From: a virus | Reading direction: 5' to 3' (one strand) | IMG/VR virus record: IMGVR_UViG_3300043449_002675 | Location: 1-64,000 of that record | DNA: 64,000 bases | In this document: positions 2,539 to 56,232 of the stretch, one piece after another | Numbering within the stretch: the stretch's first letter is position 1 | Layout: each line of letters begins with the position of its first letter | Position numbers and translations under genes: made by a program | The notes under the pieces: generated by a model | What the model saw: only the letters and a program-made list of their open reading frames with translations | Database searches by the model: none | What the model was told of the DNA's origin: nothing

Positions 2539-3132
2539 TTATTCTTTTGGTATAGCTTGATTTTTATTAAGTACTTTGATTTGTTTGGGGTCGAAAACAG
2601 CGATATTATTTGCGCCAGTTTCTTGAGTGAGTATTGAGTCGAATCCCATTTTCTTGATATAGTCTATGATTGGTTTGGATTCTACGAATCTCCAGCTTTT
2701 ATTTTCGATTCTCCAGAGTATGTGATCGACTGCATCATCTGTGGTTTGAACGGGTTGATTTGTTTTGTGGTTAGTGAGAGTAGGTGAGATATTGAAGTTA
2801 GCTCCGGTTTCTTCGTCTTTGTATTTAGCTTCTACATTTTGTTTGATGATTGGGATGAGCATTTCTCTATGATCTTTGTTTTGTGGGTTGAATGGATTTT
2901 TAGCATCTAGGCAGGCTGTGAAGACATGTCCTTTGGTTTCATCGCCTGAGAATCCTTGTCCTGTTGCGAAATTATGTGCGAATTGTGGGTTATCGGTGAA
3001 GTAAATAGTGCCGTAGTAGTTTGAGTGTCCGGGGTCGAAGTTATCGAAATCTTTTTGGGTTCCGTGGTAGACGGGTCCAAAGAGTCCGTTGCATTGGTTA
3101 TCTTGTTCATTTAACCATTGTTTAAAATTCAT
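2539..3132 (-). CDS. ADP-ribosyltransferase-like protein (ART-PolyVal type) with capsid-targeting-like N-terminus
   Basis: VYHGT..FDNF, IYFTDNPQFA..FA, LDAKNPF, GFDSI and IAVFDPKQIK motifs; starts MNFKQWLNE. Confidence 0.75.
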   Translation of the reverse strand: MNFKQWLNEQDNQCNGLFGPVYHGTQKDFDNFDPGHSNYYGTIYFTDNPQFAHNFATGQGFSGDETKGHVFTACLDAKNPFNPQNKDHREMLIPIIKQNVEAKYKDEETGANFNISPTLTNHKTNQPVQTTDDAVDHILWRIENKSWRFVESKPIIDYIKKMGFDSILTQETGANNIAVFDPKQIKVLNKNQAIPKE

Positions 3133-3151
3133 AATATTTATATATAAAAAT

Positions 3152-3319
3152 ATGTTAACATTTATGGAATGGTTGAATGAATATAATGCACCTAGGGCTG
3201 GGATGAAGTCTAGGTGGTCTGTAAAATATAAGAAGTCTATTAATTGCAGTAATCCTAAAGGATTTAGTCAGAAGAATTATTGTAAGCGGAAGAAGCGTGG
3301 TGGTGGTTATAAGGGTTAG
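3152..3319 (+). CDS. Small basic phage protein with capsid-targeting-like N-terminus
   Basis: MLTFMEWLNE followed by WSVKYKKSINCSNPKGFSQKNYC; TATATA 5 nt upstream. Confidence 0.7.
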   Translation: MLTFMEWLNEYNAPRAGMKSRWSVKYKKSINCSNPKGFSQKNYCKRKKRGGGYKG

Positions 3320-3615
3320 AGTAAATCGGCTTTGAGTACTTTATATATTTTTGAAGGTAATTTATAATCTTTTCTACCGTTTGGGAATTCGTCATCTAGT
3401 TCTAGGTCTTTTATTGGTACAACGACTTTAACTACGGTGCCATCGCCGTAACCTATATTAGATGGGGTATTGGTGAGGAAGACGTTTGGTTCTTTTCCGA
3501 TGAGTGTGAGGGTATCGAGAATATTTTGTGCTGCGTCTTTGGTGGTATGGTGGTAGAGGGTGGCGGTTTTAGGGCCATTGTTATTTTTTGATTCTAGCCA
3601 GATTTTGAAGTTCAT
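3316..3615 (-). CDS. Putative minimal ADP-ribosyltransferase-fold protein, capsid-targeting-like N-terminus
   Basis: MNFKIWLES; LYHHTTKDAAQNIL...VFLT...YGDGTVVKV pattern of H-type ART/KptA-like folds; TATAAATA immediately upstream. Confidence 0.55.
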   Translation of the reverse strand: MNFKIWLESKNNNGPKTATLYHHTTKDAAQNILDTLTLIGKEPNVFLTNTPSNIGYGDGTVVKVVVPIKDLELDDEFPNGRKDYKLPSKIYKVLKADLL

Positions 3616-3619
3616 GATT

Positions 3620-3641
3620 TATTTATACGCAGGTGTAAATA
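3620..3641. promoter_or_regulatory. Divergent T4-late-like promoters (TATAAATA on - strand, TAAATA on + strand)
   Basis: Boxes lie 4 nt before ATG 3615 (-) and 5 nt before ATG 3647 (+), with no room for an SD. The same architecture recurs more than 12 times. Confidence 0.7.
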
Positions 3642-3646
3642 CTTTT

Positions 3647-4423
3647 ATGTTAGGTTTCAAGCAATTTATTGAAGCAAATAGTCCTGAGTTCAACAGGCGG
3701 GCAGAGATTATATCTGGTGCAGGCAACATAATATTCAATATAAATGATGAAAACAAAAAAAAAGTCATGATTGATTTATATGATTTAAACGATTTTCACA
3801 AAGTAAGAGATGATCGTTATGGTAGTGATAATTTTATGAAGGATATTAGAAAAACAGTTGATGAAAAGGCAGCGGTAGAAAAAGCCAAAGTTGGCGGAGG
3901 TATTTTGGAGATGAAAGACAATCCTGCCAATCTGCATATTTGGTTGGACGATAATCTCAGGGGCAAAGGGGTAGGGGGAATGATTTATGAGATAGCCATG
4001 GAGTATGCCACTGCTCACGGCAAAGCCCTTGTGATGTCTGGTGCCAAGGATGACATGTTTACTAGTAAAAACGCATATAAGGTATGGGATCATTTCTATA
4101 AGAATCGCCAGAACGTAATTCCTGTACCAATAAGCAAATACAGTGGAAATAACAAATACGATAAAATAATAGCACAAAAAATTCTAGACGGTCTCATAGA
4201 CACTGGAAATAGGTTTAATGATCGACGATCAGTCACTCCCGAAGTAATAGAGGAGCTTAAAGAAAAGTATCCGACAGCATTTCATGCTTTTAAGCGTAAT
4301 ATGTATACTATTCCGCATTTGCAAAAGGCTAGGAAGCTAATTGAAATAAACAATATTGACGAGTTGTATAAATATTTTTCTACATTGGTGGATGGAAAAT
4401 ATAAAAAATTCAGTATGGCATGA
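3647..4423 (+). CDS. GNAT-family acetyltransferase, capsid-targeting-like N-terminus
   Basis: Acetyl-CoA motif A LRGKGVGGMIYE plus TSKNAYKVW; starts MLGFKQFIEA. Confidence 0.7.
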   Translation: MLGFKQFIEANSPEFNRRAEIISGAGNIIFNINDENKKKVMIDLYDLNDFHKVRDDRYGSDNFMKDIRKTVDEKAAVEKAKVGGGILEMKDNPANLHIWLDDNLRGKGVGGMIYEIAMEYATAHGKALVMSGAKDDMFTSKNAYKVWDHFYKNRQNVIPVPISKYSGNNKYDKIIAQKILDGLIDTGNRFNDRRSVTPEVIEELKEKYPTAFHAFKRNMYTIPHLQKARKLIEINNIDELYKYFSTLVDGKYKKFSMA

Positions 4424-4435
4424 TTTATATTTATT

Positions 4436-4900
4436 ATGAAGACATTTATGCAATATTTGGTTGAGAATGAGGTAGGGGATTATTTAACTCAGTTGAAAAA
4501 TATGGGTTATACGTTAATGGCGCATCAGACGCATAGGGATATAGCTGACAAAATAATAACTCAGGGATTTGGTGGGAATGCTGGTGTATCTGGGACAGCA
4601 TTGATGACTTCACCTGATGCGGTGCGGCAAGCGATGGAGGCTATGAGGGAGAAGCAGAGTGGTCGTGAGGGTCCGGGATCTGGTTTAGTTCATGGCGGAT
4701 CAGATTCTATAGTATTGATGGCTGTGCCGAAGATGATACAAGGAACACGGGTTAAGGGATTGGATGATATTGATTATTATTTAGGAGAATTGAATTTGGG
4801 CATGAAGGTGCCGAATCAGAACATAATAGGTTATGCAACTTCTGATGGGCAGATGGTGAGGAATCCTAATTTTGATCCTAAGAAATCGCCGTTGCAGTAA
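4436..4900 (+). CDS. Putative ART-fold protein with capsid-targeting-like N-terminus
   Basis: MKTFMQYLVE; AHQTHRDIADKIITQGF resembles the HxT..I...GF start of ART domains (weak). Confidence 0.5.
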   Translation: MKTFMQYLVENEVGDYLTQLKNMGYTLMAHQTHRDIADKIITQGFGGNAGVSGTALMTSPDAVRQAMEAMREKQSGREGPGSGLVHGGSDSIVLMAVPKMIQGTRVKGLDDIDYYLGELNLGMKVPNQNIIGYATSDGQMVRNPNFDPKKSPLQ

Positions 4901-5111
4901 TAAGTTGAATTTTAGATTCTTTAATGCATTTGGTGCAAGCTTTAGTTTTCTTATTATTTAATTTGAATGATTGTAGGTTTGGGAGGAATCTTCTTTTGGA
5001 GATACCTGTGATTTTAACGCCATTTCCTTTGAGGTATTTGGGTTTACCTCTTTTGGATATGGAATAGCCGGTGGTGGGTGATTTGCCGCAAATTTGGCAC
5101 AGTTTTGACAT
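4878..5111 (-). CDS. rpmB: 50S ribosomal protein bL28 (Zn-ribbon form, PVC/Planctomycetota-like)
   Basis: CQICGK...SKRRFLPNLQ...CTKCIK; long RGKPKYLKGNGVKITG loop; AGGAG RBS. Confidence 0.92.
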   Translation of the reverse strand: MSKLCQICGKSPTTGYSISKRGKPKYLKGNGVKITGISKRRFLPNLQSFKLNNKKTKACTKCIKESKIQLITATAIS

Positions 5112-5125
5112 GATTGGACTCCTTT

Positions 5126-5158
5126 CTGCTAATTTAGCAGCTGGGAGATGGTTGTCAA
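5126..5158 (-). promoter_or_regulatory. Sigma70-type promoter of rpmB with overlapping palindrome
   Basis: TTGACA-N16-TAAATT with extended TG; inverted repeat CTGCTAA-N-TTAGCAG at 5126-5140 covers the -10 and start region. Confidence 0.65.
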
Positions 5159-5194
5159 GGGGTTAATTTTCTTTGATGCGCAATAAATACAATT

Positions 5195-5986
5195 ATGCAA
5201 TTTAGACAATGGTTAGAGAGTAAGGGCATATTGATACCGGATGATATAGATTCGGTAATAGATGGTTTAGTGCCTAAGATAATGGAGAAATTGCCGGAAT
5301 CGTTAGGGAATATTGGTAAGGATGTATTAGTGGCATCGAATGTACCTTTGGGAAGTCCTTATGGGATAAAAAGTGATGTAAATGTATATTTGAATTCGGA
5401 TCCTGCAAAAAGGGCTTATGGATTTTATAATACAGGTGGCAAGATTACTATAAATGGGTCGGTTGTTCCGAAGCAAAATTCGGAGAGGCACATTCGGAGA
5501 GCATTGTGGCATGAGTTGGGAGTTCATGCTAGGGATCCAAAACTTTTAAGGCGAGATTTGCGTTCAAAACTCACTGCTGCTCAGAATATGCCTGATTACA
5601 AGGAATATGGAAAGTCTTATTTTCATCAACCTGTAGAAGTTGATGCGCATATTGGTGAAATAGTTCACAGTATAGAAAAGTTTGGCAAGCAGTATAAAGA
5701 TAGGCCGGAATGGGCGATGAGTGTTTTGGATGACACTTTGGCTTATTTGCGAAATCCTAGTTTGGCAAAAAGGACGCAAAGGTTTGGATTATTAGCTGAT
5801 CCAAAATGGCAGGACAAGTTTAAGCAATATTTGGACGATCCGAAGTTAAAAAGATTGATGTTTGATCGTTTGTATAATGCTGTAGCTAGGGCGAAGGAGA
5901 GGATTAAGCCATCTGCTGGCAATCCGGCTTCTGACAGGGCGAAAGAATTTATAAATAAATTACGGGCAAGAAAAAGCATTAAGTAA
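5195..5986 (+). CDS. Zincin-like metallopeptidase, capsid-targeting-like N-terminus
   Basis: MQFRQWLES; GFY..ITIN...ALWHELGVH (HExxH with a one-residue insertion) and downstream YFHQPVEVDAH. Confidence 0.6.
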   Translation: MQFRQWLESKGILIPDDIDSVIDGLVPKIMEKLPESLGNIGKDVLVASNVPLGSPYGIKSDVNVYLNSDPAKRAYGFYNTGGKITINGSVVPKQNSERHIRRALWHELGVHARDPKLLRRDLRSKLTAAQNMPDYKEYGKSYFHQPVEVDAHIGEIVHSIEKFGKQYKDRPEWAMSVLDDTLAYLRNPSLAKRTQRFGLLADPKWQDKFKQYLDDPKLKRLMFDRLYNAVARAKERIKPSAGNPASDRAKEFINKLRARKSIK

Positions 5987-6974
5987 CGTTTGTAAGACCT
6001 GCTGAGACACCTTGAGCGGCACTGGCTGCGGCAGTTGCCGCATCGGTGTGTGTTAGATTTTTAACAAATTTGGATGTCATTTTAGCTGGTGTAATGGATT
6101 GGGTCATATCTTGAGTTGGGGATATGATTGGGACATTTAGATTACTGAGAATTTTATTGACATCATCGGCGTTGACCAAGTTTGTGTTTGTGACTGCTTG
6201 TCCTAGTGCTTGTAAATTATCTGGAGTAGCTAGGGCTTTATATGATTTTCCTATACCTGCGCCTACTGCAAGTCCGATTCCTGTTAGGAAAAGTGCTTTT
6301 GCGATAGGAACTTTATTTTTATTTGCCCATTGCAGAACATTTCCGGCAGCTTGTTTCATTTTTGGACCCAAATAATTTGCGAGTTTTGAGGTATTACCTA
6401 CAAGTTTACCTGCCATGTTTCCTATCATATGTCCGGCGGTATCTCTCCAACCTTCGTCATACTTATTTTGCAAGAAGTTGTGAAATGAGTAATCTTCGTG
6501 GTGAGGAGTTTGTACTCCCATCATTGCAGCGCCTTTATCAAAAGCTTTTCCTGCAAATTTATTCAATTGTTTATCGGCAAAGTAGGTGAGTGCTGCCAAT
6601 GGTACAGCACCGCCGCCACCTGTAAGACCTGCTGCTAATAGTGTAATTGCAAATGTTGGAGATATTCCTAATTTTTTTAGAGTATCTCCCATGGTAGAAG
6701 CTATTTGTGATGCGGTTTTAATGGCAGGTTCTGCTGCCTGCCTATATTTCTCTAAATTTTCTTGATCGAGGAATGTTGGCTGGTTTTTTTGTGTAGCTTG
6801 TTGGCCTTGTTGGTAGCCGGCTCTTAAATTATGGAAGAATCCTTTATTTTGTATTGGACCAGTAGTTTGTTGTGGATTTGCTTGTTGTTGTGCTGGTGCT
6901 TGTGGATTTGCTTGTTGTTGTGCCGGCGGCGGCGGCAATTTTTCTTCAGCAAGGTATTGTTTGAAGCTAATCAT
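5979..6974 (-). CDS. Gln-rich protein with Gly/Ala hydrophobic segments, capsid-targeting-like N-terminus (possible ejection protein)
   Basis: MISFKQYLAE; QQQANPQ repeats; FAITLLAAGLTGGGGAVPLAAL and ALFLTGIGLAVGAGIG segments. Confidence 0.7.
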   Translation of the reverse strand: MISFKQYLAEEKLPPPPAQQQANPQAPAQQQANPQQTTGPIQNKGFFHNLRAGYQQGQQATQKNQPTFLDQENLEKYRQAAEPAIKTASQIASTMGDTLKKLGISPTFAITLLAAGLTGGGGAVPLAALTYFADKQLNKFAGKAFDKGAAMMGVQTPHHEDYSFHNFLQNKYDEGWRDTAGHMIGNMAGKLVGNTSKLANYLGPKMKQAAGNVLQWANKNKVPIAKALFLTGIGLAVGAGIGKSYKALATPDNLQALGQAVTNTNLVNADDVNKILSNLNVPIISPTQDMTQSITPAKMTSKFVKNLTHTDAATAAASAAQGVSAGLTNVT

Positions 6975-7396
6975 TATTTTTGTTGTTGTTGGGGTTGTGG
7001 TTGAGCTTGCTGTTGTTGTTGTTGTTGTTGTTGTTGACCTTGTTGGGGTTGCTGCTGTTGCTGTTGAGGTTGAGGTTTTTGTTGCGGCTGTGCTTTTGCT
7101 TTTAGTTGTTGAATTGCTTGAACGTGTTTTGCAACTTCATTAGGTTTTGCTGCTAATTGTGCAAGTTGTGATACGGTGATTTTTGGCATGAGTGTTTTGG
7201 TTAGATATTCGAAAGTAGTTGCATCTGTTTTTTGCAAAGGTTCCAAAGATTTATTTGCAGTATCTGTAATGGTTTTGAAAAGAGTCTGTAGTTGACCAAC
7301 AGCGTTTTTCATAGCCTGTTGGGGATTTTGCTGTTGAGCCTGTTGCTGTTGGGGTTGTTGTTCAGACAGCATAATAAATTCTTTGAAAGTTTTCAT
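6974..7396 (-). CDS. Poly-Gln protein, capsid-targeting-like N-terminus
   Basis: MKTFKEFIMLSE; Q-rich ends; TAAATA 6 nt upstream; TAATG coupling to the next gene. Confidence 0.75.
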   Translation of the reverse strand: MKTFKEFIMLSEQQPQQQQAQQQNPQQAMKNAVGQLQTLFKTITDTANKSLEPLQKTDATTFEYLTKTLMPKITVSQLAQLAAKPNEVAKHVQAIQQLKAKAQPQQKPQPQQQQQQPQQGQQQQQQQQQQAQPQPQQQQK

Positions 7397-7408
7397 GATA
7401 ATTATTTA

Positions 7409-7663
7409 TTATTTCCCTTCAACTTTTTTCAGTTTTGTGTAGTATTTGGGATCTTCTCTTAGATGGGCAATAGCTATTTTGAGAACATCGGAAGGTCTTT
7501 TGACTACATCGGTATCTTTATCTTTGTTGTGTTCTTTTTCAGTGTTTACGCCGAGTACTAATTCGTTTCTGTCATAGTTGCTTATATTTAGACCGGTATC
7601 CTTTGACATCTTTACAACGTCATCGAAGTTATATCTTTTTAGCCATTCGGTGAATAGTATCAT
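7409..7663 (-). CDS. DUF5661-like phage protein
   Basis: ELVLGVNTEKEH...IAIAHLREDPKYYTKL signature; starts MILFTEWLK. Confidence 0.7.
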   Translation of the reverse strand: MILFTEWLKRYNFDDVVKMSKDTGLNISNYDRNELVLGVNTEKEHNKDKDTDVVKRPSDVLKIAIAHLREDPKYYTKLKKVEGK

Positions 7664-7694
7664 AATTTTATGTACACAGATACGTAAATAATGT

Positions 7695-8096
7695 ATGAAT
7701 TTTAAGTTATGGTTATTGGAAAATGCTGCTGCGCCTCAGGAATTGCCTAATGAGATTCAGGAGTTTATTTATAATCTTGCACCATATGGTCATGCGGTGC
7801 AGATGAGTTTTCCTGCTGCTGCGAAGAGGGCACCGGGAGAATTTATAATGGGTGGGCAGCAGTTTTTGCAGTTGTTGCAGCAATTTTTCAATAGGGCATC
7901 ACAAGCTTTGCGTAATCCTGCATCTCCGGTGGAATACAGAAAGCAGTTAGGGGAATATTTGCAGAAGAATCAGCAGATATTAAATCATTATTTTACAGAT
8001 CCTGAATTTGCCAATCAGACATATGTAATACACACGAATAGACCGGGTCAGCGTTATGCTGAAAATAAATTAAATACTGTATTTCCAGTTTTGTGA
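7695..8096 (+). CDS. Hypothetical protein, capsid-targeting-like N-terminus
   Basis: MNFKLWLLE; TAAATA 4 nt upstream. Confidence 0.75.
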   Translation: MNFKLWLLENAAAPQELPNEIQEFIYNLAPYGHAVQMSFPAAAKRAPGEFIMGGQQFLQLLQQFFNRASQALRNPASPVEYRKQLGEYLQKNQQILNHYFTDPEFANQTYVIHTNRPGQRYAENKLNTVFPVL

Positions 8097-8321
8097 TTTA
8101 TTCCGCCAGTTAATAACACCTGAGCGCATTTTTTGTAGAAATGTCATGCAAAAAGTTATTCTTGGAAGTGTTGAAAAGCAAGAAGACCAGCTAACTGGGC
8201 TGGTGTAGGTAATTTCAGTCATTCTTATATTTGGCGGAATACAACCATTAGGTCCTAAGGAATAGCTTTGAAACGACTTAAAAAGTCTGACATCGCTATC
8301 GGAATGTAGGCGTTTGATCAT
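8070..8321 (-). CDS. Hypothetical protein
   Basis: GGAGG RBS and CTATAGT -10-like box upstream. Confidence 0.5.
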   Translation of the reverse strand: MIKRLHSDSDVRLFKSFQSYSLGPNGCIPPNIRMTEITYTSPVSWSSCFSTLPRITFCMTFLQKMRSGVINWRNKSQNWKYSI

Positions 8322-8364
8322 GTTATCCTCCGTTGACTATAGTGTCTTTTTTGCGAAGTTAAAG

Positions 8365-8649
8365 TTATACTTTGCCTGCGTCTTCAATTCTTTTGATTAT
8401 TTTATCAGGTTTAGCAGGTTTAAGTGGAGGAAGGCCGGGCTTAAGTTTCTCTTCTGGTTCGTGGTCTGATATTGCAAGTGGTGTATCGAGATATCCTCTT
8501 TTAGCAAGTTCTGCTGTGCCAAGAAGTCCAGCGCCTGCAGCTGTTGCGCCGATGGTGAGAGGAAATTTCCTTACTATTAATTTGGCTTTCTTTTCCAAAA
8601 TGATTTCATTTTGTTGTTCAACGTAGTCACTAAATTTGTAGCTTTTCAT
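8365..8649 (-). CDS. Hypothetical protein with hydrophobic segment, capsid-targeting-like N-terminus
   Basis: MKSYKFSDYVEQ; TATATA 5 nt upstream of ATG 8649. Confidence 0.65.
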   Translation of the reverse strand: MKSYKFSDYVEQQNEIILEKKAKLIVRKFPLTIGATAAGAGLLGTAELAKRGYLDTPLAISDHEPEEKLKPGLPPLKPAKPDKIIKRIEDAGKV

Positions 8650-8709
8650 AAAATTATATATTGTTTGCAAGTTTATATATTTCGTGCGTAATAGTGTTGG
8701 AGGTGTATT

Positions 8710-9477
8710 ATGGCAAGATTTTTTATAATATTGATTTGTTTAATTGGTGTAACTGGAGCATTTGGTCAATTTAGGCCTTATATGCCTCCTAGACCTCCTT
8801 TGCCTCCAGCAACAGTAATTCCTGTGATGCCTAATGGACAAAATGGGTTTAATGGAATGCAAGGAGGTGGTATAAATGGTGGTATGATGGGAATTAGTGG
8901 TGGCATGACGGGCATGGGAGGGATTCAAGGTGGTAATTTTGGTATGTCTGGTGGCGGTATGGGGGTTGGTGGATTTATGGGCCAGCTTGGCGGAATGGCA
9001 GGCGGAATGTCTGGCATGGGCATGGGTGGCTTTGGGATGGGTGGTATGGGTCTTGGTGGCGGCATGGGCGGTATTTCTGGTGGCATGTCTGGTGGCATGA
9101 TGGGAGGCGGAAACAATAATCCTTATGGGGCATATACACCGGGAACTGTAGTGCGACCTAGTGGGATGAGCGGTCCATACAGCGTAATTCCTATTCAAGG
9201 TGGTTACATGTTGGGAATGGGTGGCGGAAGCATGTCTGGTATGGGTATGGGTGGATTTGGTGGTGGACAGTTTGGTTTTGGTGGTGGAATGATGGGGCTT
9301 GGTGGTGGTCAAATCGGTATAGGAGGGCAGTTCGGTGGTAACAATATTGGTAATGGTGGTTTTGGTGGCAACTTTGGCAATTTTGGCGCTATGGGTGGGG
9401 GACAGCTCGGCGGTATGATGGGTGGCGGGTTTGGAGGCAACAAAGGATTCGGATTCTGCGGTGCAAGTGGAATTTGA
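8710..9477 (+). CDS. Secreted Gly/Met-rich low-complexity protein
   Basis: Signal peptide MARFFIILICLIGVTGAFG; GGM/GGFG/GGQFG repeats; GGAGGT RBS. Confidence 0.75.
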   Translation: MARFFIILICLIGVTGAFGQFRPYMPPRPPLPPATVIPVMPNGQNGFNGMQGGGINGGMMGISGGMTGMGGIQGGNFGMSGGGMGVGGFMGQLGGMAGGMSGMGMGGFGMGGMGLGGGMGGISGGMSGGMMGGGNNNPYGAYTPGTVVRPSGMSGPYSVIPIQGGYMLGMGGGSMSGMGMGGFGGGQFGFGGGMMGLGGGQIGIGGQFGGNNIGNGGFGGNFGNFGAMGGGQLGGMMGGGFGGNKGFGFCGASGI

Positions 9478-9552
9478 AAAAATTTACTTGTCTTTCAAAC
9501 ATAAGTGACTAATGTTTACGAAAGGTTGATATCACAAGTGACAGGTGTAATA

Positions 9553-9813
9553 ATGAACATTATCCTTTGGTCTGGTGCTATTGTATTTGCTATTTTAGCA
9601 GGTGGGGCAGCACTATTCTTTATTTTGGCAGTTATTGGGTTTTTGTATAATGTCTTTTTTGAATATCCCGCTGATGCCAAAAGAAAGGCTTTCTTAGCAT
9701 CAAGAGAACCCGTAGACATTGATGCGGCCTTTGAAAGACTGAAGAATAACTTGGAGGATATTGATCGCAGTTCCAAAATCGAAAGCACGGGTTTAAAAGT
9801 ATACAAGGAGTAA
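9553..9813 (+). CDS. Small membrane protein
   Basis: N-terminal hydrophobic helix; AGGTG RBS. Confidence 0.65.
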   Translation: MNIILWSGAIVFAILAGGAALFFILAVIGFLYNVFFEYPADAKRKAFLASREPVDIDAAFERLKNNLEDIDRSSKIESTGLKVYKE

Positions 9814-9816
9814 GTC

Positions 9817-10122
9817 ATGCGTCGTTACACGGTTACGGAAAGGGATATTGCGGGCGGTAGTAATTGGCAGAGGAGGCAGGTTGAAGTCACCAGAGAGCCA
9901 AATGGTGTTGAATCTGTAATTGGATTTTTTCTGTTGATACCTTTGATGCTGCCTTTGTTCTTTATTTTTTACCCTATTGTTGGTTGTCTTGGCCCCAACA
10001 TGGATAGGAGAATGCAGAGCAGTCAAGAAAGGCATGACAGAGAAGTTCAGGATCGTTCTAACAGACAGCGTGAACTGGATAGGTCTTGGATGTCGGATTC
10101 CCAATTTAATTCCAAATACTAG
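9817..10122 (+). CDS. Small membrane protein
   Basis: Central TM helix; AGGAGTAAGTCATG junction. Confidence 0.7.
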   Translation: MRRYTVTERDIAGGSNWQRRQVEVTREPNGVESVIGFFLLIPLMLPLFFIFYPIVGCLGPNMDRRMQSSQERHDREVQDRSNRQRELDRSWMSDSQFNSKY

Positions 10123-10131
10123 GAGTAAGTC

Positions 10132-10299
10132 ATGGAAGCCTTGGTATATTTTGGAATGGTGTGTGTTAGCATTGTATTTGTTGGCACTGTGTTAATTATT
10201 TCTGGGTGTATTATTGCTGCTAAAATAGCAGATATAAAGAAAAAGCCTGCGTCCGAAAACGCAGGCCATGTAGGATTAAAGATTTTTTCGCCGAATTAG
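10132..10299 (+). CDS. 55-aa membrane protein (MEALVYFGMVCVSIVFVGTVLIISG...)
   Basis: Identical AGGAGTAAGTCATG junction; single TM helix; not in the ORF track. Confidence 0.6.
   Translation: MEALVYFGMVCVSIVFVGTVLIISGCIIAAKIADIKKKPASENAGHVGLKIFSPN
10237..10266 (-). terminator. Rho-independent terminator (minus strand)
   Basis: GCCTGCGT-TTTCGG-ACGCAGGC followed by a T run on the - strand, downstream of 10296..10988. Confidence 0.7.
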
Positions 10300-10988
10300 G
10301 CGTGTCTGTTGAGCTTGCCGGCGAATGTAATTGGGTTGATAGGACTTCTTGCTCCACCTCTTCCGCCTGTGATTGGATCGTAGGTAGGGGCTTTCCAAGT
10401 TTCTTTGCCAAACTTCTTTTGTCCCTGCAAGTTGTCGATGACGGATTGTAAAATCGCATCAACGCCTGTATCCCAATTGGCGTTTTCTTCGACAATGGAA
10501 CGAATTTTTCCGGTAAGTTCACGAAGGTCTTTAATTTTCTTATCAAATGCTCTTTTGATAATTGCATCGCCTTCTTTCATTTTCTGCATGTCTTTGGGAT
10601 CCATAAGATCGCCTTCGAGACCTTTTAGCTCAATCTGTTGTAGATCAGCCAAAACTTTTTCTCTTTGGTTGGTTAGATCTCTTCTGGCTTGTTCCAAGCT
10701 GTAGATAGCTTCTCTGGAAATGTCATACATTTTTTCATTTGCTTTTGACACCGTGGTCTGAAGATGTGTGAGTACATCAACTAGGTCTGACTGTGCTGTA
10801 CTTATATTACTATCTCTTGCAAAGTCAGTCGCTGTCTGTCTTATTTTGTTAGCAGTTCCGAAAACGGTGTCTCTAGCAAAGTTTCCTAAGGTGTTAAAAA
10901 ACCCTTTTATACGTGACTTGACTCCCTCGTCTAGAGTTTCGTCTCCATCTCTTGCTCTTCTATAATCGTTAAAAGATATTTTTCTCAT
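10296..10988 (-). CDS. Coiled-coil protein (possible internal virion protein)
   Basis: MRKISFNDY...LDEG; helical heptads; GAGG RBS. Confidence 0.7.
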   Translation of the reverse strand: MRKISFNDYRRARDGDETLDEGVKSRIKGFFNTLGNFARDTVFGTANKIRQTATDFARDSNISTAQSDLVDVLTHLQTTVSKANEKMYDISREAIYSLEQARRDLTNQREKVLADLQQIELKGLEGDLMDPKDMQKMKEGDAIIKRAFDKKIKDLRELTGKIRSIVEENANWDTGVDAILQSVIDNLQGQKKFGKETWKAPTYDPITGGRGGARSPINPITFAGKLNRHA

Positions 10989-11086
10989 GTTTTCCTCTAA
11001 GAGTAAATCTTTAAATATATAGAATAATGTGTAAAATTTTTGAGTTCTAAAACATATAATATGTTTTTACGTAATTGGAGAAAGAA

Positions 11087-11494
11087 ATGGCACAGTATCA
11101 CAAACACTTGATTTTGAATGCAATAGTCAGGAATCCTATTCAGACAGAAGAGGACTGTAATTGTTGGTTAGCGGAGCTTGTTCGCATAATTGACATGGAC
11201 ATATTGATTCCTCCGCATTCTAAGTATTGTGATATTGAAGGGAATGAAGGAGTAACCGGTACTTGTGTAATTACAACAAGTCATGTTAGCATTCATGTGT
11301 GGTCAAAGGTTGAGAAGCCTTATATCAGAATGGATGTTTACAGTTGCAAGGATTTCGACGTATCTAAGGTATTGGATTATGTAAATGGAACTATGGATAC
11401 GGAAGAAGAGGGTCATTTGGTAATTGACAGGAACTCTATTGGCCCTAAAGTTTCTTGCTGTTCTGATCATAAATGTCAGGCAGCATCGGTTTAA
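11087..11494 (+). CDS. speD: S-adenosylmethionine decarboxylase proenzyme
   Basis: HKHLI..., GVTGTCVITTSHVSIHVW (self-cleavage Ser), DVYSCKDFD. Confidence 0.88.
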   Translation: MAQYHKHLILNAIVRNPIQTEEDCNCWLAELVRIIDMDILIPPHSKYCDIEGNEGVTGTCVITTSHVSIHVWSKVEKPYIRMDVYSCKDFDVSKVLDYVNGTMDTEEEGHLVIDRNSIGPKVSCCSDHKCQAASV

Positions 11495-11960
11495 TTCGAT
11501 TTAAAATTTCTTTTACTTTTTCATTTTCTATATCACTATTTGCCAGTGATGTTAGGTAGAAATAAGCTGTGGACAGGGCTTTTAGGGCACCTAGTACTAT
11601 AGCTTGTTTTGATGGGTCTAATGCTGCCAAGAAAGGCGATATTGTTGGGAAAAGTACCAAGGGGTTAGCGAGAGCAAGTTTGCTTGATTGTCCAACGGAT
11701 TTTGCCAAACTTTTCCAGTATTTAATTTTCTTTGGGCTACGCATGACTTTTCTGAGATCGTATGCGACATCAATATTAGATTTTAATGTTGGTTTGAGCA
11801 TGAGAATCATTTTGCTGGTTCCAAGAATAAAATCTGCTAATTTAATAATTTTTTTATAGTCTGCGACATCATTTACGGCTTCGAGTGGGGACGGTCCATC
11901 GTGTCCCATGTGGGAAGCGACATCTGAGTATGATTCTAAAAATTCTTTGAAGCCGTGCAT
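11445..11960 (-). CDS. Hypothetical protein, capsid-targeting-like N-terminus, hydrophobic C-half
   Basis: MHGFKEFLES; TATATA 4 nt upstream. Confidence 0.7.
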   Translation of the reverse strand: MHGFKEFLESYSDVASHMGHDGPSPLEAVNDVADYKKIIKLADFILGTSKMILMLKPTLKSNIDVAYDLRKVMRSPKKIKYWKSLAKSVGQSSKLALANPLVLFPTISPFLAALDPSKQAIVLGALKALSTAYFYLTSLANSDIENEKVKEILNRIKPMLPDIYDQNSKKL

Positions 11961-11970
11961 TCAATATATA

Positions 11971-12252
11971 TTATTCCCAGTATTCTTCTTCATTTATCCA
12001 GTAGTGTAAGACTAAATTTCCCGATGCTGAAGGGTATTGTCTATCTATTTTAATCTTGCCGTTATGAATATCTTGGTGGCATTTTCTGCAGCAGACTACT
12101 GTGTTTTGATCTGTATATTTGCCGCCATTTTCTCCTTCAACAATTCTATGAACATCTAGAAACTCGTAGACATCGCATGGGCAAAACTTGCATTTGCCAG
12201 CTATATGTTTCTTGGCTTTTTTATTTATTAGTTTTTTGATTCTTCGTGCCAT
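11971..12252 (-). CDS. HNH endonuclease
   Basis: CKFC...DVHRI..GGKY..NTVVCCRKCHQDIH. Confidence 0.85.
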   Translation of the reverse strand: MARRIKKLINKKAKKHIAGKCKFCPCDVYEFLDVHRIVEGENGGKYTDQNTVVCCRKCHQDIHNGKIKIDRQYPSASGNLVLHYWINEEEYWE

Positions 12253-12923
12253 TTATCCAGATAGTCCAAATAATCAGGTAAACAATTATACATGAATGTA
12301 AAATCTTTAGTTGGGTGAAATTTGAAATATAGTTCTGATAGAGTTTGTTCTGGTGTTGCAATGATGCAGGTTTTCAATCTGTTTTTAAATTTGAAGCCAA
12401 GATGTGAAAGTAGGCTATAGTCATATCCAATATACCCGAATGCGTTTTGTAGAATTCCGATTTTTTGTATAAGGCTATATTTTGATTTATCAATAATTGT
12501 GTTTTTGATTTGTTTGGTAAAAGAATTGAAGCTAAAAAGTTGAATATTGTGTTTAACGGCAATTTTTTCTAGTAATCCTATGTTTTGGTCGCCGATATAA
12601 TCTTCGACCAAGATATATTTTTTATCAACTAGTTTTGGAAGTGTTGGCATTTCTTGCAGGGAAATTTTACATTTCCAGTAATAGATTTTTTTGATAAGGA
12701 CATAGCTTAAAAGGTCTCTTCCGTTTACGGTATTTTGCAGGATATTTTCCTTTGGGATGACAGTAAGTGATTTTAGTGTACGAACTGTTTGGCAGACTGA
12801 TTTGATATCGTTTTCTATTTCTGGCAGGCAATATATTTTAGTTTTCTCCAATTCTTCATCGGAGAGGTAGGCTTGCATGAGCATAAAAAAGTTTAGATTT
12901 TTGCAACATATATCTAATATCAT
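12228..12923 (-). CDS. Glycosyltransferase family 9-like protein (divergent)
   Basis: ILQNAFGYIGYDYSLLSHL resembles the GT9 IGxDSGxxHL motif. Confidence 0.4.
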   Translation of the reverse strand: MILDICCKNLNFFMLMQAYLSDEELEKTKIYCLPEIENDIKSVCQTVRTLKSLTVIPKENILQNTVNGRDLLSYVLIKKIYYWKCKISLQEMPTLPKLVDKKYILVEDYIGDQNIGLLEKIAVKHNIQLFSFNSFTKQIKNTIIDKSKYSLIQKIGILQNAFGYIGYDYSLLSHLGFKFKNRLKTCIIATPEQTLSELYFKFHPTKDFTFMYNCLPDYLDYLDKWHEESKN

Positions 12924-12958
12924 AAAAGCCTTTTTTGCGGTTAATAATATATACTTGT

Positions 12959-13651
12959 ATGTATATGGAGCAGCTTAAATTCAGTAAATGGTTAGCGGAA
13001 GTTAACTTGGGCACCTTAGAAACCGAGCTTGTAGACAGCAAGCCAATAGAGTCTTTGTATGCGAAGGCCAAGAATGCGGTTGATTTGGTACGCAAGTATG
13101 ATCAGGCTGAAGCAGAGCATAATTGGTTGAAGAAGAGAGTAGGCTGGCAGGGTCCGAAGAATGATTTCGGATATTTATTGAATATAAGTACTATCGCACC
13201 TTTGGCTGGGACCATATATGGTTTGTTTAACAGCAGGGAAAATCAAAGAATATTAGACAAAGATGTGCGCAAGTATCCGGTAACATTTAAATCAAACAGG
13301 CCATTGACGAAGGATGAAAAGGGAGAGGAAGATCTCCTAAAAAACCTTGCTTTTAATATTATGAAGAAGCAGTATCCTGATATTGATCCAAATAAGATAC
13401 ATGACAGTGCTGTAATACACGTAAATGTGCCTCATATTGTCAATACTATGAAGATGAGGGGTTTGACTGGTGAGGAGCTTGAAAAGGCTATAATAAGAGA
13501 AATTGCTAGTACCATAGTGCATGAATCTACGCATCAGTTGGAGAGGACATGGATGGGAGCAACGGATGAAAATGGTCCTAAAGAGGCGGAAAAAAGGTTT
13601 GTTAATTGGCTTGAAAGAAATCCTAACTTGCTAGCTATGGCGGCAAAATGA
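12959..13651 (+). CDS. HExxH metallopeptidase-like protein, capsid-targeting-like N-terminus
   Basis: LKFSKWLAE; STIVHESTHQLE...DENGPKEAE; TATATA 5 nt upstream. Confidence 0.7.
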   Translation: MYMEQLKFSKWLAEVNLGTLETELVDSKPIESLYAKAKNAVDLVRKYDQAEAEHNWLKKRVGWQGPKNDFGYLLNISTIAPLAGTIYGLFNSRENQRILDKDVRKYPVTFKSNRPLTKDEKGEEDLLKNLAFNIMKKQYPDIDPNKIHDSAVIHVNVPHIVNTMKMRGLTGEELEKAIIREIASTIVHESTHQLERTWMGATDENGPKEAEKRFVNWLERNPNLLAMAAK

Positions 13652-16446: not shown

Positions 16447-17091
16447 TTATTTTTTCTTAACTTCTATTTCTTTTCCATTAAGAGTGAACGACTGGCTAAG
16501 TTTTACGCTGGTGATTAATTGGGGTACGCCAATATGATTGCAGATATTGTGTTTCTTGGCTGTTCTGGCGTTCATAAAAATATCTGCGTGGTTATGTTTG
16601 TGGAGCATTTCTAGGAAATAGTCTTCCTTTTTGCCTATGTTTTTTGCTGCCAGTTTGAAAATCAAATTATTCAATCTGTCTGTTTCATGAGCGTCTGATT
16701 TGATTTCTTCTACCTTGCCGAAGTTGAATGAACTAACTTCGTGTATCATGATGGTTGCATGTTCAGACATAAATCTAAGATTTTCATGGCCGAACATGAA
16801 TAGCATAGCACCGCAACTCATAGCTTTGCCATTACAAATGGTAGCAATTGGTACTGGGCTGCTTTGGAATAGGGAAATTAGTTCGAGCAGTGTGTAAACT
16901 TCGCCGCCATAGGAATCGATAACAACAGGAATTACTTTTGGGTTAGAGCTAAGTGCTTTATTGAATTCTTCATTGAAGTGTTCCAGCATTTCTGTATCAA
17001 ATGCTTTGCTTAATCTTATTAGTGGTACTTCAATTCCCAAATCGGAAAGTTTGCAGCGAATATTTTTATCAATGTCAACATAATTCTTCAT
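16447..17091 (-). CDS. clpP: ClpP-family serine protease
   Basis: IDSYGGEV, GKAMSCG (catalytic Ser), ATIMIHE (catalytic His), DIFM. Confidence 0.88.
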   Translation of the reverse strand: MKNYVDIDKNIRCKLSDLGIEVPLIRLSKAFDTEMLEHFNEEFNKALSSNPKVIPVVIDSYGGEVYTLLELISLFQSSPVPIATICNGKAMSCGAMLFMFGHENLRFMSEHATIMIHEVSSFNFGKVEEIKSDAHETDRLNNLIFKLAAKNIGKKEDYFLEMLHKHNHADIFMNARTAKKHNICNHIGVPQLITSVKLSQSFTLNGKEIEVKKK

Positions 17092-17110: not shown

Positions 17111-17818
17111 TTATAGCTTCTCCGAACGTTTTTTCCAGTGTTTTGTGAATCCGGTGTTAATGCAATTTAGGTTATCAAATTGCCACCCGAAGTATTGTAT
17201 GTCATCTGCAAATGCCTCTTGTGCAACTTTTACCAAATTGTCAGTGTAGTATCTTTTGTATTCGTTGTGTTTTGTTTTGTTTACATGATATTTTTTTGCA
17301 AATAATGCTGCGTCGTACTTGTGCCCGTAAGTTTTATTCAAAAAAGTACACAAAGTTTTCATGTCCTCGTTCAAATCGTGGAAATTTAAAATATAGTCTG
17401 CTTTAAAAAGATGATTTTCTATATCTATGAGTCTTTTTTGATACATGTGATAATAATCTGCATTATCAAACCTTTTTTTTGCAAGCAAATTAACATATTT
17501 TGTGAATGAGAAATTTTTAGGTAGGCTATTGCGTTTATGGTGGTATGAATAATGACTTACAATTTGATCGAATGTATTTCTGACACAGCCTATAACGAAT
17601 GGGTTTGGTGTAATTGATGGGTAATTGAATTCTATATCTTTGTAACTAGCCTTTTCCCAAGAGATATAAGGTTTTTCGAATTTTATTTGTTTGCCTATTG
17701 GTTGGTGGGCCATTTCATGCGGTTCTGCATTTCCCAAGAAGTATTGAAGTGAAGTGCCGGCGCATTTAGCAACGTGAAATAGGATAATATTATTATTTTT
17801 GAATCCTACCAGTCCCAC
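17111..17818 (-). CDS. Sulfotransferase family 2 protein
   Basis: 5'-PSB motif FHVAKCAGTSL and 3'-PB motif VRNTFDQIVSHY. Confidence 0.8.
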   Translation of the reverse strand: MGLVGFKNNNIILFHVAKCAGTSLQYFLGNAEPHEMAHQPIGKQIKFEKPYISWEKASYKDIEFNYPSITPNPFVIGCVRNTFDQIVSHYSYHHKRNSLPKNFSFTKYVNLLAKKRFDNADYYHMYQKRLIDIENHLFKADYILNFHDLNEDMKTLCTFLNKTYGHKYDAALFAKKYHVNKTKHNEYKRYYTDNLVKVAQEAFADDIQYFGWQFDNLNCINTGFTKHWKKRSEKL

Positions 17819-19110
17819 TAGATTACTTCCTTATTGATTAACCTTTCGTAAGCGTTTGGGCTGCCAAGTAAGTTCAAGAATTGTTTGATTATACTTTTGC
17901 CGATGTTTACTGGCTTGGAGAATAGGTCGGAAAGCACATGTGGATTTTTATTGCCTGATTGTACAATTCTGCCCAGCCTTAAAAGAAATTGCACATTCTC
18001 TGCGTCGAGGTCAGAAAATCCTCTGGTTTTGAGAATCTTTTCAACTTCAAATGGATCGTTGCCCAACATAAGCATAGCGGTGCCAATAATTTTGTTATTA
18101 GGAATCTGCGTGCAATCAATTTTGTCACAGATGTTTGAAAAGTGTAATTTGGGGAATATTTTGTTGAGTAAACCGGCTTTTTTGAGATTGTCCACGTATT
18201 TGGCAACTGGAACCTCTGGATTTTCGATAGTTGCCACAAACATTCTTTTGAGTATTTTGGGATCGTAATCACTGTTCTCAAAATCACGAATTTCATCTGT
18301 GAGGTCTTTGCTAAGATTGCCATTTTTTGCAAATCTTGCGGAAATCCCACAAAGGTTAAATGGAAGATATGGATTTCTTTCGAATGCAAGTTCCGGTCTG
18401 CGTATTAATTGCACTATTCCTGCTTTGAGGTCGTGCATGCCACCTTGCGGATCGATTAGTTCACCATTTTCGCCATCGGGGTCTTTAAGTTTGATATACA
18501 TGGCGTTGATTGTAATATCTCTGGTCGCAGCATCTTGTTCTATGCTGGTAGTAAATTTTGCTTTAAGGGGAACTAGTCCTCTATATTTCTCATGGATGCA
18601 GAATGGTGAAATGTATAGTTTTTGTCCATTTACCACAGCGGTGACTTCTATTTCTGTGCCTGCTTTGTCCCATCTGCTTGCATAAAAATAGTTTTTTGCC
18701 GAGTGGCTGCTGGGCAGATCTTCATATTTGTCTAGCATATGAAGGTCGTGACTTATTGGTTTTACTTCTTTGAATCTTGTCGCTGGTCCTTTTAGTATTT
18801 TTTTAATTTCATCAGGACTTGCATCTGTAACTAGGTCATAGTGGTGGAATGGTTGATTTGCAAGGTGATCTCTAACACTTGCGCCGCAAAGGTATAGAGT
18901 TTTCTTTTTCATAGTTGGTTCAACTACGCCTTTATTTTTCTCTATCGTGGTGTAGCCCAAGGGAATTTCAGCGGAGTTTTCGAATGCTTCTATGACTTTC
19001 TGCAGTGCTGGATGTGATTTGTTTGAAACCAATAATGGTCCGAACTCGCCATCAGCGTCTCTTTCTTTTAGCCTATATTTGGCTATCATAGGGTAATTCT
19101 TGTCTTCCAT
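17818..19110 (-). CDS. Class II tRNA nucleotidyltransferase/poly(A) polymerase homolog with degenerate active site
   Basis: LYLCGASVRD, YDLVTDASPDEI, DAATRDITINAMY and IDPQGGMHDL present; DxD, RRD and EDxxR altered. Confidence 0.8.
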   Translation of the reverse strand: MEDKNYPMIAKYRLKERDADGEFGPLLVSNKSHPALQKVIEAFENSAEIPLGYTTIEKNKGVVEPTMKKKTLYLCGASVRDHLANQPFHHYDLVTDASPDEIKKILKGPATRFKEVKPISHDLHMLDKYEDLPSSHSAKNYFYASRWDKAGTEIEVTAVVNGQKLYISPFCIHEKYRGLVPLKAKFTTSIEQDAATRDITINAMYIKLKDPDGENGELIDPQGGMHDLKAGIVQLIRRPELAFERNPYLPFNLCGISARFAKNGNLSKDLTDEIRDFENSDYDPKILKRMFVATIENPEVPVAKYVDNLKKAGLLNKIFPKLHFSNICDKIDCTQIPNNKIIGTAMLMLGNDPFEVEKILKTRGFSDLDAENVQFLLRLGRIVQSGNKNPHVLSDLFSKPVNIGKSIIKQFLNLLGSPNAYERLINKEVI

Positions 19111-21411: not shown

Positions 21412-21936
21412 ATGCAGACCTTTCTTGAATACGCTATTCACAGAGTAAAGACCTTTGAGCCAAAAAGATTGCACAATCTTTATTTGGCTTTAAAAAAGGG
21501 CGGTCTTGCAGTTATCAATCGTATTCATCAGCAAAATGATCCGCATCTTTGGGTACAGGCTCATCCTCAACCTGAAGAATATAGAGGCATAAGAGTTTAT
21601 CTTCTTGGAAACATATGTGCTTTCAGAGTTCAAAAGCTTGAAAGCACTGAGCCTTATGGAAAATCCTATCTTTTGGATCTGCAAGAAATGTATGACAACA
21701 TTCTTGAGGATTTAGGCGAGGAAGAGGACAATAAGGATCCCAATAAAGCCATGGACATTTTAATCAAGCAGATGTGCGATAAAATTAGGAAATTCTACAT
21801 TGATTCGATTAAGGACGAAGAGGAATTCCTTTCTGCTCAACTTGATGGGCCAGAAAGACAAGATATTGGTGGCGCTGCAATATTGCCCGTTACTGGCATT
21901 GATTACTCAAGCACCGTTTACAGCACCAAAAACTAA
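21412..21936 (+). CDS. Hypothetical protein, capsid-targeting-like N-terminus
   Basis: MQTFLEY; TAAATA 4 nt upstream. Confidence 0.7.
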   Translation: MQTFLEYAIHRVKTFEPKRLHNLYLALKKGGLAVINRIHQQNDPHLWVQAHPQPEEYRGIRVYLLGNICAFRVQKLESTEPYGKSYLLDLQEMYDNILEDLGEEEDNKDPNKAMDILIKQMCDKIRKFYIDSIKDEEEFLSAQLDGPERQDIGGAAILPVTGIDYSSTVYSTKN

Positions 21937-51776: not shown

Positions 51777-52072
51777 ACAATAAAAAGTTTTTTTCGCCAA
51801 ACTTTATGGCAGAATTTAAGAAGTGGATGTCTGAAAACCAAGACAGCAAGAATTCATTTGTTAAAGGACAACATGTATACAGCGGAGCCAAACTTAAACA
51901 CATAGTTGAAACTATAGACTGTTTGGATGTTGGAGAAAATGCCGTGCTTGATGTAAGCAAATATTTCATCAAGCACGGCGGTGTTGTAAAAGAGGTAAAC
52001 GGGGATCAAGTTACAATCAAGAATAAAAAAGGAACATTTATCCTTTCCAATCAGGATTTGGTTTCACAGTAA
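51773..52072 (+). CDS. Hypothetical protein
   Basis: Contains EFKKWMSE (tag-like); 99 aa. Confidence 0.6.
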   Translation: MNNKKFFSPNFMAEFKKWMSENQDSKNSFVKGQHVYSGAKLKHIVETIDCLDVGENAVLDVSKYFIKHGGVVKEVNGDQVTIKNKKGTFILSNQDLVSQ

Positions 52073-55936: not shown

Positions 55937-56185
55937 ATGGCAGTACTTATTGAACCAAGTAATTTGAAAGTGATCAGCCAAAATGGACAGGTCACATTAG
56001 CCCTGCAGATTGAGTTAAATATCAATCTCAACAGCAACGTCACGACTACCGATGCTGGAAATAGTGGAGGTAGCCACAATTTCAAAACCAGCACAACACC
56101 ACTCAAAAACGCTCAAGATGAAGAAAAAACAGAATGGTTGGTCCCTGATTTTACAGCTAAAGAAAAGGTTAAGTTTGGCAAATGA
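55937..56185 (+). CDS. Small protein upstream of the actin homolog
   Basis: Beta-rich N-terminus, disordered middle, WLVPDF..VKFGK tail. Confidence 0.65.
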   Translation: MAVLIEPSNLKVISQNGQVTLALQIELNINLNSNVTTTDAGNSGGSHNFKTSTTPLKNAQDEEKTEWLVPDFTAKEKVKFGK

Positions 56186-56232
56186 GGGGAGCATATGGCA
56201 ACAATAGTCCTAGAAAAGAGAAAGGCAAAAAT

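Follow-up and report, generated by a model that had tools for sequence, protein, structure and literature searches.

Introduction

The internal proteins of phage T4 are addressed to the head by a capsid targeting sequence (CTS), MKTYQEFIAE, in which mutagenesis assigned residues 4 and 7 to targeting and residues 8 and 10 to processing (PMC9026906). Head incorporation of IPIII needs only its first 10 residues (Black laboratory review, PMC9026906), and it is gp21, the prohead protease, that processes the CTS (Mullaney & Black 1996, reviewed in PMC9026906 and PMC3012670). That internal proteins of T-even phages share only this tag is textbook matter (PMC3012670). Two of them have known targets or hosts, since IPI acts against GmrSD and IPIII is needed on strain ECOR17 (PMC9391042), and the Alt ADP-ribosyltransferase (ART) is also packaged in the head, processed by gp21 and injected (PMC9026906). 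Here, we analysed the first 64,000 nucleotides (hereafter, the window) of IMG/VR record IMGVR_UViG_3300043449_002675, a viral contig of 91,968 bases, in which an array of small genes at 2539-13651 encodes proteins that start with a peptide of the same type. These proteins quite probably form a swappable set carrying T4-type head-loading tags, which a gp21-type protease would trim and which would be delivered with the DNA.

Two other described systems resemble the locus in part. Polyvalent proteins share with it the ART-PolyVal domain, and possibly GNAT or zincin-like domains, as well as the presumed purpose, namely the delivery, together with the DNA, of enzymes that are the first to act in the host (Iyer et al. 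2017, cited in PMC7824862). Unlike polyvalent proteins, the cargo proteins of the contig are separate small proteins of one domain, each of which has a tag and a promoter-like box to itself, and are not joined in one giant multidomain protein. To our knowledge, polyvalent proteins do not use the T4 tag. The phiKZ-like phages and SPN3US are likewise giant phages with many head-internal proteins, namely ejection and inner-body proteins, whose N-terminal propeptides are removed by a gp21-related protease (PMC5694885, PMC7411985). In contrast to these phages, the giant T4-like lineage described below conserves the T4-type tag itself. The phiKZ-like phages and SPN3US cut at (S/A/G)-x-E, and we know of no shared short N-terminal targeting consensus defined for them. 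Within the literature searched, we found no paper describing such tags outside T-even phages, and a comparative study of jumbo phages makes no mention of them. The mechanism is known from T4; scale and cargo are new.

Seventeen genes start with the same peptide

The segment 2539-13651 comprises ~22 genes on both strands, 13 of which start with the shared N-terminal peptide. An earlier note on this DNA had listed 13 genes with such a start, and all 13 N-termini are indeed present at those genes. With the tag pattern M-x(1-3)-[FY]-x-x-[WFY]-[LIVM]-x(0-3)-E, and a few slight departures permitted, 17 of the ~114 genes of the contig (~15%) are tagged. The four tagged starts beyond the array are located at 51806 and 62083 (plus strand) and, outside the window, at genome positions 72910 (minus strand) and 86184 (plus strand). 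Two outliers had also been put forward, of which 62083 has a good tag whereas 21412 is not counted as tagged because the aliphatic residue and the Glu are both missing.

2539..3132, minus strand: tag MNFKQWLNE; ART cargo of 197 aa (Pfam ART-PolyVal 1.7e-18, residues 16-192)
3152..3319, plus strand: tag MLTFMEWLNE; 55 aa, pI 10.5
3316..3615, minus strand: tag MNFKIWLES; 99 aa, possible minimal ART-like domain (weak Tox-ART-HYD1, E = 0.084)
3647..4423, plus strand: tag MLGFKQFIEA; 258 aa, GNAT-like (sub-threshold GNAT, E = 0.014-0.05)
4436..4900, plus strand: tag MKTFMQYLVE; 154 aa, ART-clan lead (nearest named clusters in a language-model atlas are three ART families, score 0.89)
5195..5986, plus strand: tag MQFRQWLES; 263 aa, possible metallopeptidase with HELGVH (HExxxH)
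5979..6974, minus strand: tag MISFKQYLAE; 331 aa, with a start rich in Q/P and hydrophobic segments rich in Gly/Ala
6974..7396, minus strand: tag MKTFKEFIMLSE; 140 aa, poly-Q rich, basic
7409..7663, minus strand: tag MILFTEWLK; 84 aa, DUF5661 (Pfam 3.3e-11)
7695..8096, plus strand: tag MNFKLWLLE; 133 aa
8365..8649, minus strand: weak tag MKSYKFSDYVE, deviating from the 4/7 aromatic spacing; 94 aa, hydrophobic segment
11445..11960, minus strand: tag MHGFKEFLES; 171 aa
12965..13651, plus strand: tag MEQLKFSKWLAE; 228 aa, candidate metallopeptidase with an invariant HExxH..E
51806..52072, plus strand, outside the array: tag MAEFKKWMSE; 88 aa
62083..62529, plus strand, outside the array: tag MHFKEWLLQNE; 148 aa
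genome 72521-72910 (L001:8521-8910), minus strand: tag MKKFSDFIEQ; small gene adjoining the portal gene
21412..21936, plus strand: doubtful outlier MQTFLEYAIHR, with an upstream box, adjoining the gene of a gp2-like DNA end protector

Chance is excluded by the rates observed for a narrower form of the pattern, with 0.16 matches per genome expected from shuffled N-termini and a match rate of 0.00036 at internal positions. Inside proteins, the motif core is not enriched (7 seen, 10.2 expected), so the tag is specific to N-termini; no cargo polyprotein with internal tags was seen in the contig. Furthermore, the conserved object is the peptide. Tags encode Phe by TTT or TTC, Leu by all six codons and Glu by GAA or GAG, in the proportions of gene bodies, and this free, body-like use of synonymous codons places selection on the peptide. 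A DNA- or RNA-level element is ruled out by the synonymous variation, the body-like codon usage and the shifting first aromatic, found at residue 3, 4 or 5.

Behind the tag, the proteins are unrelated. All-against-all BLASTP of the 17 cargo bodies, tags removed, gave no significant similarity (best E = 0.036). The array cargo ranges from 55 to 331 aa, with at most one recognisable domain apiece, and 14 of the 17 cargo proteins are basic (pI 8.0 or higher). The tag could still be a functionless relic of common descent among fast-diverging paralogues, with the N-terminus evolving slowest, and the clustering of the genes, often in divergent pairs, does suggest local duplication. However, the bodies represent different folds and families (ART, DUF5661, the HExxH family, poly-Q) that retain no residual similarity, the ART family is widespread without a tag, the tag conserves residue classes and not letters, and T4 has the same tag even though its capsid protein is only ~30% identical. 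Such a relic is therefore extremely unlikely.

The earlier note had staked its proposal on the motif not being equally common on replication and metabolic genes. In the contig, no recognisable housekeeping or structural gene is tagged; the untagged genes include those for bL28, SpeD, ClpP, a CCA-adding enzyme, a methyltransferase, an HNH protein, terminase, portal, capsid, baseplate and an actin homologue.

A T4-type head module in a fragment of a giant phage

A complete T4-type head module is found at 66-78 kb of the contig:

large terminase
genome 69978-72524 (L001:5978-8524): gp20 portal (Portal_T4 2.6e-73) with an intein (Intein_splicing 2.1e-14, residues ~155-335)
620-aa protein
genome 74936-75607: Peptidase_S77, the gp21 prohead protease (PF03420, 2.4e-29)
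in the scaffold position, between the protease and capsid genes: protein of 301 aa, rich in Glu and with 20 [LIV]-x-E sites
Gp23 major capsid protein (1.8e-86, domain from residue 56)

The S77 protease matches the T4 gp21 structure 5JBL (E = 9.2e-18) and, at sites that are Ala in the crystallised chain, carries His and Ser (ELDHP, GVSSRG). The capsid protein bears an N-terminal extension of ~48 residues that ends in L-I-N-E48, just ahead of the Gp23 domain. Judged by sequence, this ending and the [LIV]-x-E sites of the scaffold-position protein present the pattern expected of T4-type protease substrates. In addition, the contig encodes a T4 gp2-like DNA end protector and tail and baseplate components, including a contractile tail, a gp6-like wedge, a spike OB domain and a P2-I-like protein.

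The contig capsid protein shares 79-99% identity with the capsid proteins of 390 environmental viral contigs, of which some measure 181-532 kb, and 74% with that of LR756511, a 595-kb 'uncultured phage' record, but only 30-35% with those of cultured T4-like phages. In blastn against GenBank phages, the structural region had no match. The linear IMG/VR contig is estimated to be ~18% complete and a 532-kb relative ~100%. Given this completeness and relatives of 532-595 kb, the window is a fragment of a giant T4-like phage and not a small genome, which rules out a '92-kb dwarf T4-like phage'. By this comparison, the source phage would have a genome of roughly 500-600 kb.

The tag matches the T4 capsid targeting sequence at its functional positions

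From 134 non-redundant tags of this lineage, the consensus M-K-T/S-F-K-E/D-[WFY]-L-x-E was obtained. The first aromatic, the anchor of the pattern, is residue 4 in 84 of the 134 tags and is F in 90%; W, F or Y lies three residues past the anchor F, position 7 is mostly Trp, and the modal start is MKT, as in T4. The consensus agrees with the T4 tag at residues 4, 7, 8 and 10. The premise of the earlier note that T4 internal proteins carry an MKTYQEFIAE-type tag holds both in the literature (PMC9026906) and in the T4 genome, which encodes this peptide twice, at the adjacent ipII and ipIII genes. Applied to T4 as a positive control, the pattern recovered IPII, IPIII and gene 61.1 (MKTFKEFIKE), and the other T4 matches were not at gene starts. 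Among the 17 contig tags, 9 have the Glu at +2 past the aliphatic residue, 6 have it at +1 and 1 has none; every tag has the aliphatic residue, since the pattern demands it.

The likeness to the CTS of IPII and IPIII thus extends to a ~10-residue N-terminal peptide that has, in consensus, aromatics at 4 and 7, an aliphatic residue at 8 and Glu at ~10, to the presence in the same genome of an S77 protease, a gp23 capsid protein and a gp20 portal, and to diverse, mostly basic cargo with only the tag in common. On the other hand, T4 has 3 matches at annotated starts where the giant lineage has 28-43 per genome, the giant lineage has arrays of 13-15 tagged genes in 11-16 kb, and many of its tags have Glu at +1 or +4 past the aliphatic residue. 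Moreover, the T4 CTS was established experimentally, while the lineage tags are known from sequence alone.

The four-position match, together with S77, Gp23 and a T4-type portal on the contig, makes it likely that the tagged proteins are loaded into the head and injected, as the earlier note had proposed. The peptide might instead address another destination or partner, such as a phage-encoded chaperone or protease adaptor, a compartment of the cell, or a membrane or secretion pathway. Hydrophobic segments do occur in several cargo proteins, and ClpP is encoded at a distance of 3 kb from the array. We nevertheless consider another address unlikely, as the tag is neither hydrophobic nor signal-peptide-like, is nearly identical in consensus to the mapped T4 capsid tag, with a match at four functional positions, and co-occurs with an S77 protease and a gp23 head. 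In addition, the small MKKFSDFIEQ gene keeps both its tag and its position beside the portal in at least 6 relatives. In contrast to the variable array, it may encode a core internal protein.

The tag is conserved while its cargo turns over

The earlier note had called for a motif scan of the genome and its relatives. In 1.1 Mb of relatives' loci, 121 open reading frames (ORFs) are tag-initiated, compared with 11.7 +/- 3.4 after shuffling. The complete 595-kb LR756511 has 28 against 2.9 shuffled, or 43 with a slightly relaxed pattern. Values are far lower in cultured phages: 4 against 1.1 in T4, 4 against 1.2 in XacN1 (three unique, all at annotated starts), 2 against 1.0 in Mel-JY01, 2 against 0.8 in P-RSM4 and 1 against 0.5 in a Flavobacterium phage. 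By these counts, the tag is old and low-copy in several T4-like lineages, and its expansion to dozens is specific to the giant-phage lineage.

Some of the low-copy genes belong to cultured phages. T4 gp61.1 (MKTFKEFIKE, NC_000866 18966-19130, minus strand) is an unstudied gene with the same tag, and three unstudied XacN1 genes (AP018399 ORF117, ORF314 and ORF352) start with MKTSFRQFLAE, MRFVQYLIE and MRFTSYLIE. These four genes are the easiest experimental entry points.

Within the giant lineage, the syntenic array of a 181-kb relative, L083 (capsid protein 87% identical), has ~15 tagged genes in 16 kb, with products of up to 558 aa. Only 3 of the 13 array cargo proteins of the window have homologues in the corresponding 20-kb stretch of L083, and the complete LR756511 encodes a homologue of just one, the DUF5661 protein. 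The cargo set turns over far faster than the head genes. Where orthologues persist, they keep the residue classes of the tag with different letters (MLGFKQFIEA versus MNFKLWLYEA). The 'plug-and-play' character attributed to the tag in the earlier note is thus borne out by unrelated bodies, by a tag that is kept while cargo turns over, and by distant ART homologues that are untagged or lie in proteins of 900-2100 aa.

The L083 homologues are 73% identical for the ART and 96% identical for the 55-aa protein of 3152..3319. In L083 the ART homologue is fused in frame behind a 240-aa domain (L083:9302-10603). Its tag, FSFKTFLTLQEE, is degenerate and internal, and may be where a cargo protein of two parts is cut.

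Tagged genes carry a promoter-like box

A TA-N-A-[AT]-A box that ends 3-8 nt before the ATG precedes 11 of the 17 tagged but 12 of the 98 untagged genes of the contig, whereas Shine-Dalgarno-like sites are found at 1 of 17 and 38 of 98, respectively. LR756511 behaves in the same way, with the box at 27/43 tagged and 75/998 untagged genes (p = 1.5e-18) and Shine-Dalgarno-like sites at 8/43 and 496/998. The box, which we take to resemble the T4 late promoter TATAAATA, is also found ahead of some virion-module genes in the contig. Its layout agrees with late expression and a leader that is very short or missing, and the box may mark leaderless late transcripts. In this respect the lineage differs from T4, whose ip genes have a Shine-Dalgarno site, in place of which the tagged genes of the lineage show a TATAAATA-like box abutting the ATG.

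The strong association of tag and box and the depletion of Shine-Dalgarno sites, together with A/T-rich tag codons, would be expected if the conserved start answered a translational need of possibly leaderless mRNAs for a particular 5' coding sequence. Yet all synonymous codons are used in tags, at body-like frequencies, and the first aromatic shifts among residues 3, 4 and 5. Box and tag also come apart, as about a third of the tagged genes in LR756511 lack the box and 75 of its box-bearing genes are untagged. Finally, many tagged genes in relatives, as well as those of T4, have a Shine-Dalgarno site, so the tag is independent of the box layout. A translational origin of the conserved start is, in our view, very unlikely.

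Cargo families

For the cargo, only the calls of ART-PolyVal (1.7e-18) and DUF5661 (3.3e-11) are solid, those of GNAT and zincin being based on motifs. The earlier note had counted up to three ART-like proteins, a GNAT, two zincins, and poly-Q or hydrophobic proteins. One ART stands, its ART-PolyVal domain starting directly after the tag, and the other two are leads. The product of 3316..3615 has only the tag and a YH-T motif in common with the ART, and that of 4436..4900 has no match in Pfam or PHROG. The 55-aa gene 3152..3319 is divergent from the ART gene, 19 bp separating their ATGs. For the GNAT candidate 3647..4423, the R-x-x-G-x-G motif is present and the profile match stays below threshold; its 3 homologues retain the tag class, e.g. 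MNFKLWLYEA.

Regarding the zincins, HELGVH of 5195..5986 is HExxxH and not HExxH; H106, E107 and H111 are invariant across three homologues, and the protein has no family match in Pfam or PHROG. In the second candidate, 12965..13651, H186, E187, H190 and E193 are invariant in a six-member alignment. Its family profile found nothing below E = 0.29 among PDB sequences and no Pfam match. In two relatives, a 23-aa linker is inserted between tag and body of this protein. AlphaFold models of the GNAT-like and HExxxH cargo, each built on a three-sequence alignment, were unusable or too poor to use (mean pLDDT 48 and 55, respectively). The poly-Q and hydrophobic proteins were seen as described, at 6974..7396 and 5979..6974. 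The DUF5661 protein has tagged homologues in relatives and LR756511. PHROGs gave only unnamed families, for two cargo proteins, and two cargo proteins have 2-3 homologues each among 5.8 billion sequences searched. Distant ART homologues without a tag are small proteins or parts of ORFs of 930-2147 aa.

Among the 134 tagged lineage proteins, ~85% have no Pfam match. The others include FMN reductase (4), ART-PolyVal (2), NIF phosphatase (2) and DUF5661 (2), with single matches to ankyrin, NUDIX, C39 peptidase, an RNA-repair multidomain protein, a CCA-adding enzyme and Toprim; pattern false positives, expected at ~10%, may include some of these Pfam-matched proteins.

Other features of the contig

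Two untagged genes with Shine-Dalgarno sites lie inside the array, one for bL28 (4878-5111, minus strand; PF00830, 1.7e-8) and one, mid-array at 8710-9477, for a low-complexity protein of 255 aa that is rich in Gly and Met and whose start resembles a signal peptide. Near the array are SpeD (11075-11494), ClpP (16447-17091) and a CCA-adding/polyA-polymerase-type enzyme (17818-19110). Further along, a 2565-aa ORF with no Pfam match (22468-30165) directly follows the gp2-like DNA end protector, and an actin homologue of the Volactin family (PF25216, 1e-66) is encoded at 56182-57246. Positions 1-2000 of the window have a GC content of 48%, compared with ~38% in the rest of the contig, and a DUF932 ORF (3-1031, 9.2e-19) at the contig end; a mobile insert may account for this region, or else a chimeric assembly. 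Between 2000 and 10000, the GC skew is +0.2 to +0.3 despite genes on both strands.

Discussion

By analogy with T4, the tagged proteins would be made late, and the ~10-residue amphipathic tag, with its aromatics at 4 and 7, would dock each of them onto the scaffolding core during prohead assembly. Cleavage by the gp21-type serine protease of the same contig would then take place behind the Glu that comes after the aliphatic residue, leaving the mostly basic proteins free inside the head, from where they would pass into the host together with the DNA. If the tag alone suffices, any small protein could be recruited, and the 500-600 kb lineage may have built its arrays of dozens of rapidly exchanged cargo genes in this way. 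Some cargo proteins would be enzymes that modify host molecules, such as the ADP-ribosyltransferase and, in relatives, NUDIX, phosphatase, ankyrin-repeat and RNA-repair proteins. By comparison with T4 IPI, IPIII and Alt, most of the cargo most likely serves counter-defence or host take-over.

Several observations weigh against this model. We infer packaging, cleavage and injection in a lineage that has no cultured member, and from a contig that represents only about 18% of a genome. The protein in the scaffold position has no family match, and a single-sequence query with T4 gp55 had no match in four lineage genomes, a result that is uninformative at such distance. Six of the 17 tags have Glu directly past the aliphatic residue (W-L-E-S type) instead of aliphatic-x-Glu, and that of 7409-7663 has no close Glu, so processing may differ or fail for some proteins. 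Three cargo proteins have hydrophobic or transmembrane-like segments, whereas T4 internal proteins are soluble. Lastly, a few tagged proteins of relatives look like housekeeping proteins (Toprim, CCA-adding enzyme, FMN reductase).

Compared with T4 Alt, the contig ART is likewise an ADP-ribosyltransferase of a T4-type phage with a protease of the same family, and its delivery as a head protein would be analogous. Unlike Alt, a protein of ~70 kDa with a 7-residue N-terminal propeptide, C-terminal processing and, by its description, another ART family, it is a 197-aa single ART-PolyVal domain with a tag of the internal-protein type. The earlier note had also viewed the array as an unbundled version of the polyvalent strategy. 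The domain repertoire agrees through ART-PolyVal, and polyvalent-type ORFs of 930-2147 aa do contain distant homologues of the contig ART; the one large multidomain protein of that strategy has no counterpart among the tagged proteins, and the 2565-aa ORF of the window is without a Pfam domain.

Extended to the whole 500-600 kb clade, the model states that the T4 tag defines a sequence-predictable set of 30-45 injected proteins per genome, with a late, probably leaderless expression class of its own, and that the content of this set turns over among close relatives much more quickly than the core genome does. We regard this broader statement as an even call. The near-identical tag despite ~30% capsid identity suggests that the contact between tag and scaffold is ancient, and for this reason the tag may also work in engineered phages besides T4.

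Should the tag act as it does in T4, the proteins brought into the host by an uncultured giant phage could be recognised with one simple rule applied to sequence. The ~130 tagged proteins, most of them without a known family, would make a focused set of candidates for roles in counter-defence or host take-over, and the tag would provide a genome-mining handle for new anti-defence proteins. For the phage, the carried proteins would act first, before transcription starts, and a ready-made enzymatic counter-defence arsenal (ADP-ribosyltransferase, NUDIX, phosphatase, RNA-repair and peptidase proteins) would precede phage gene expression.

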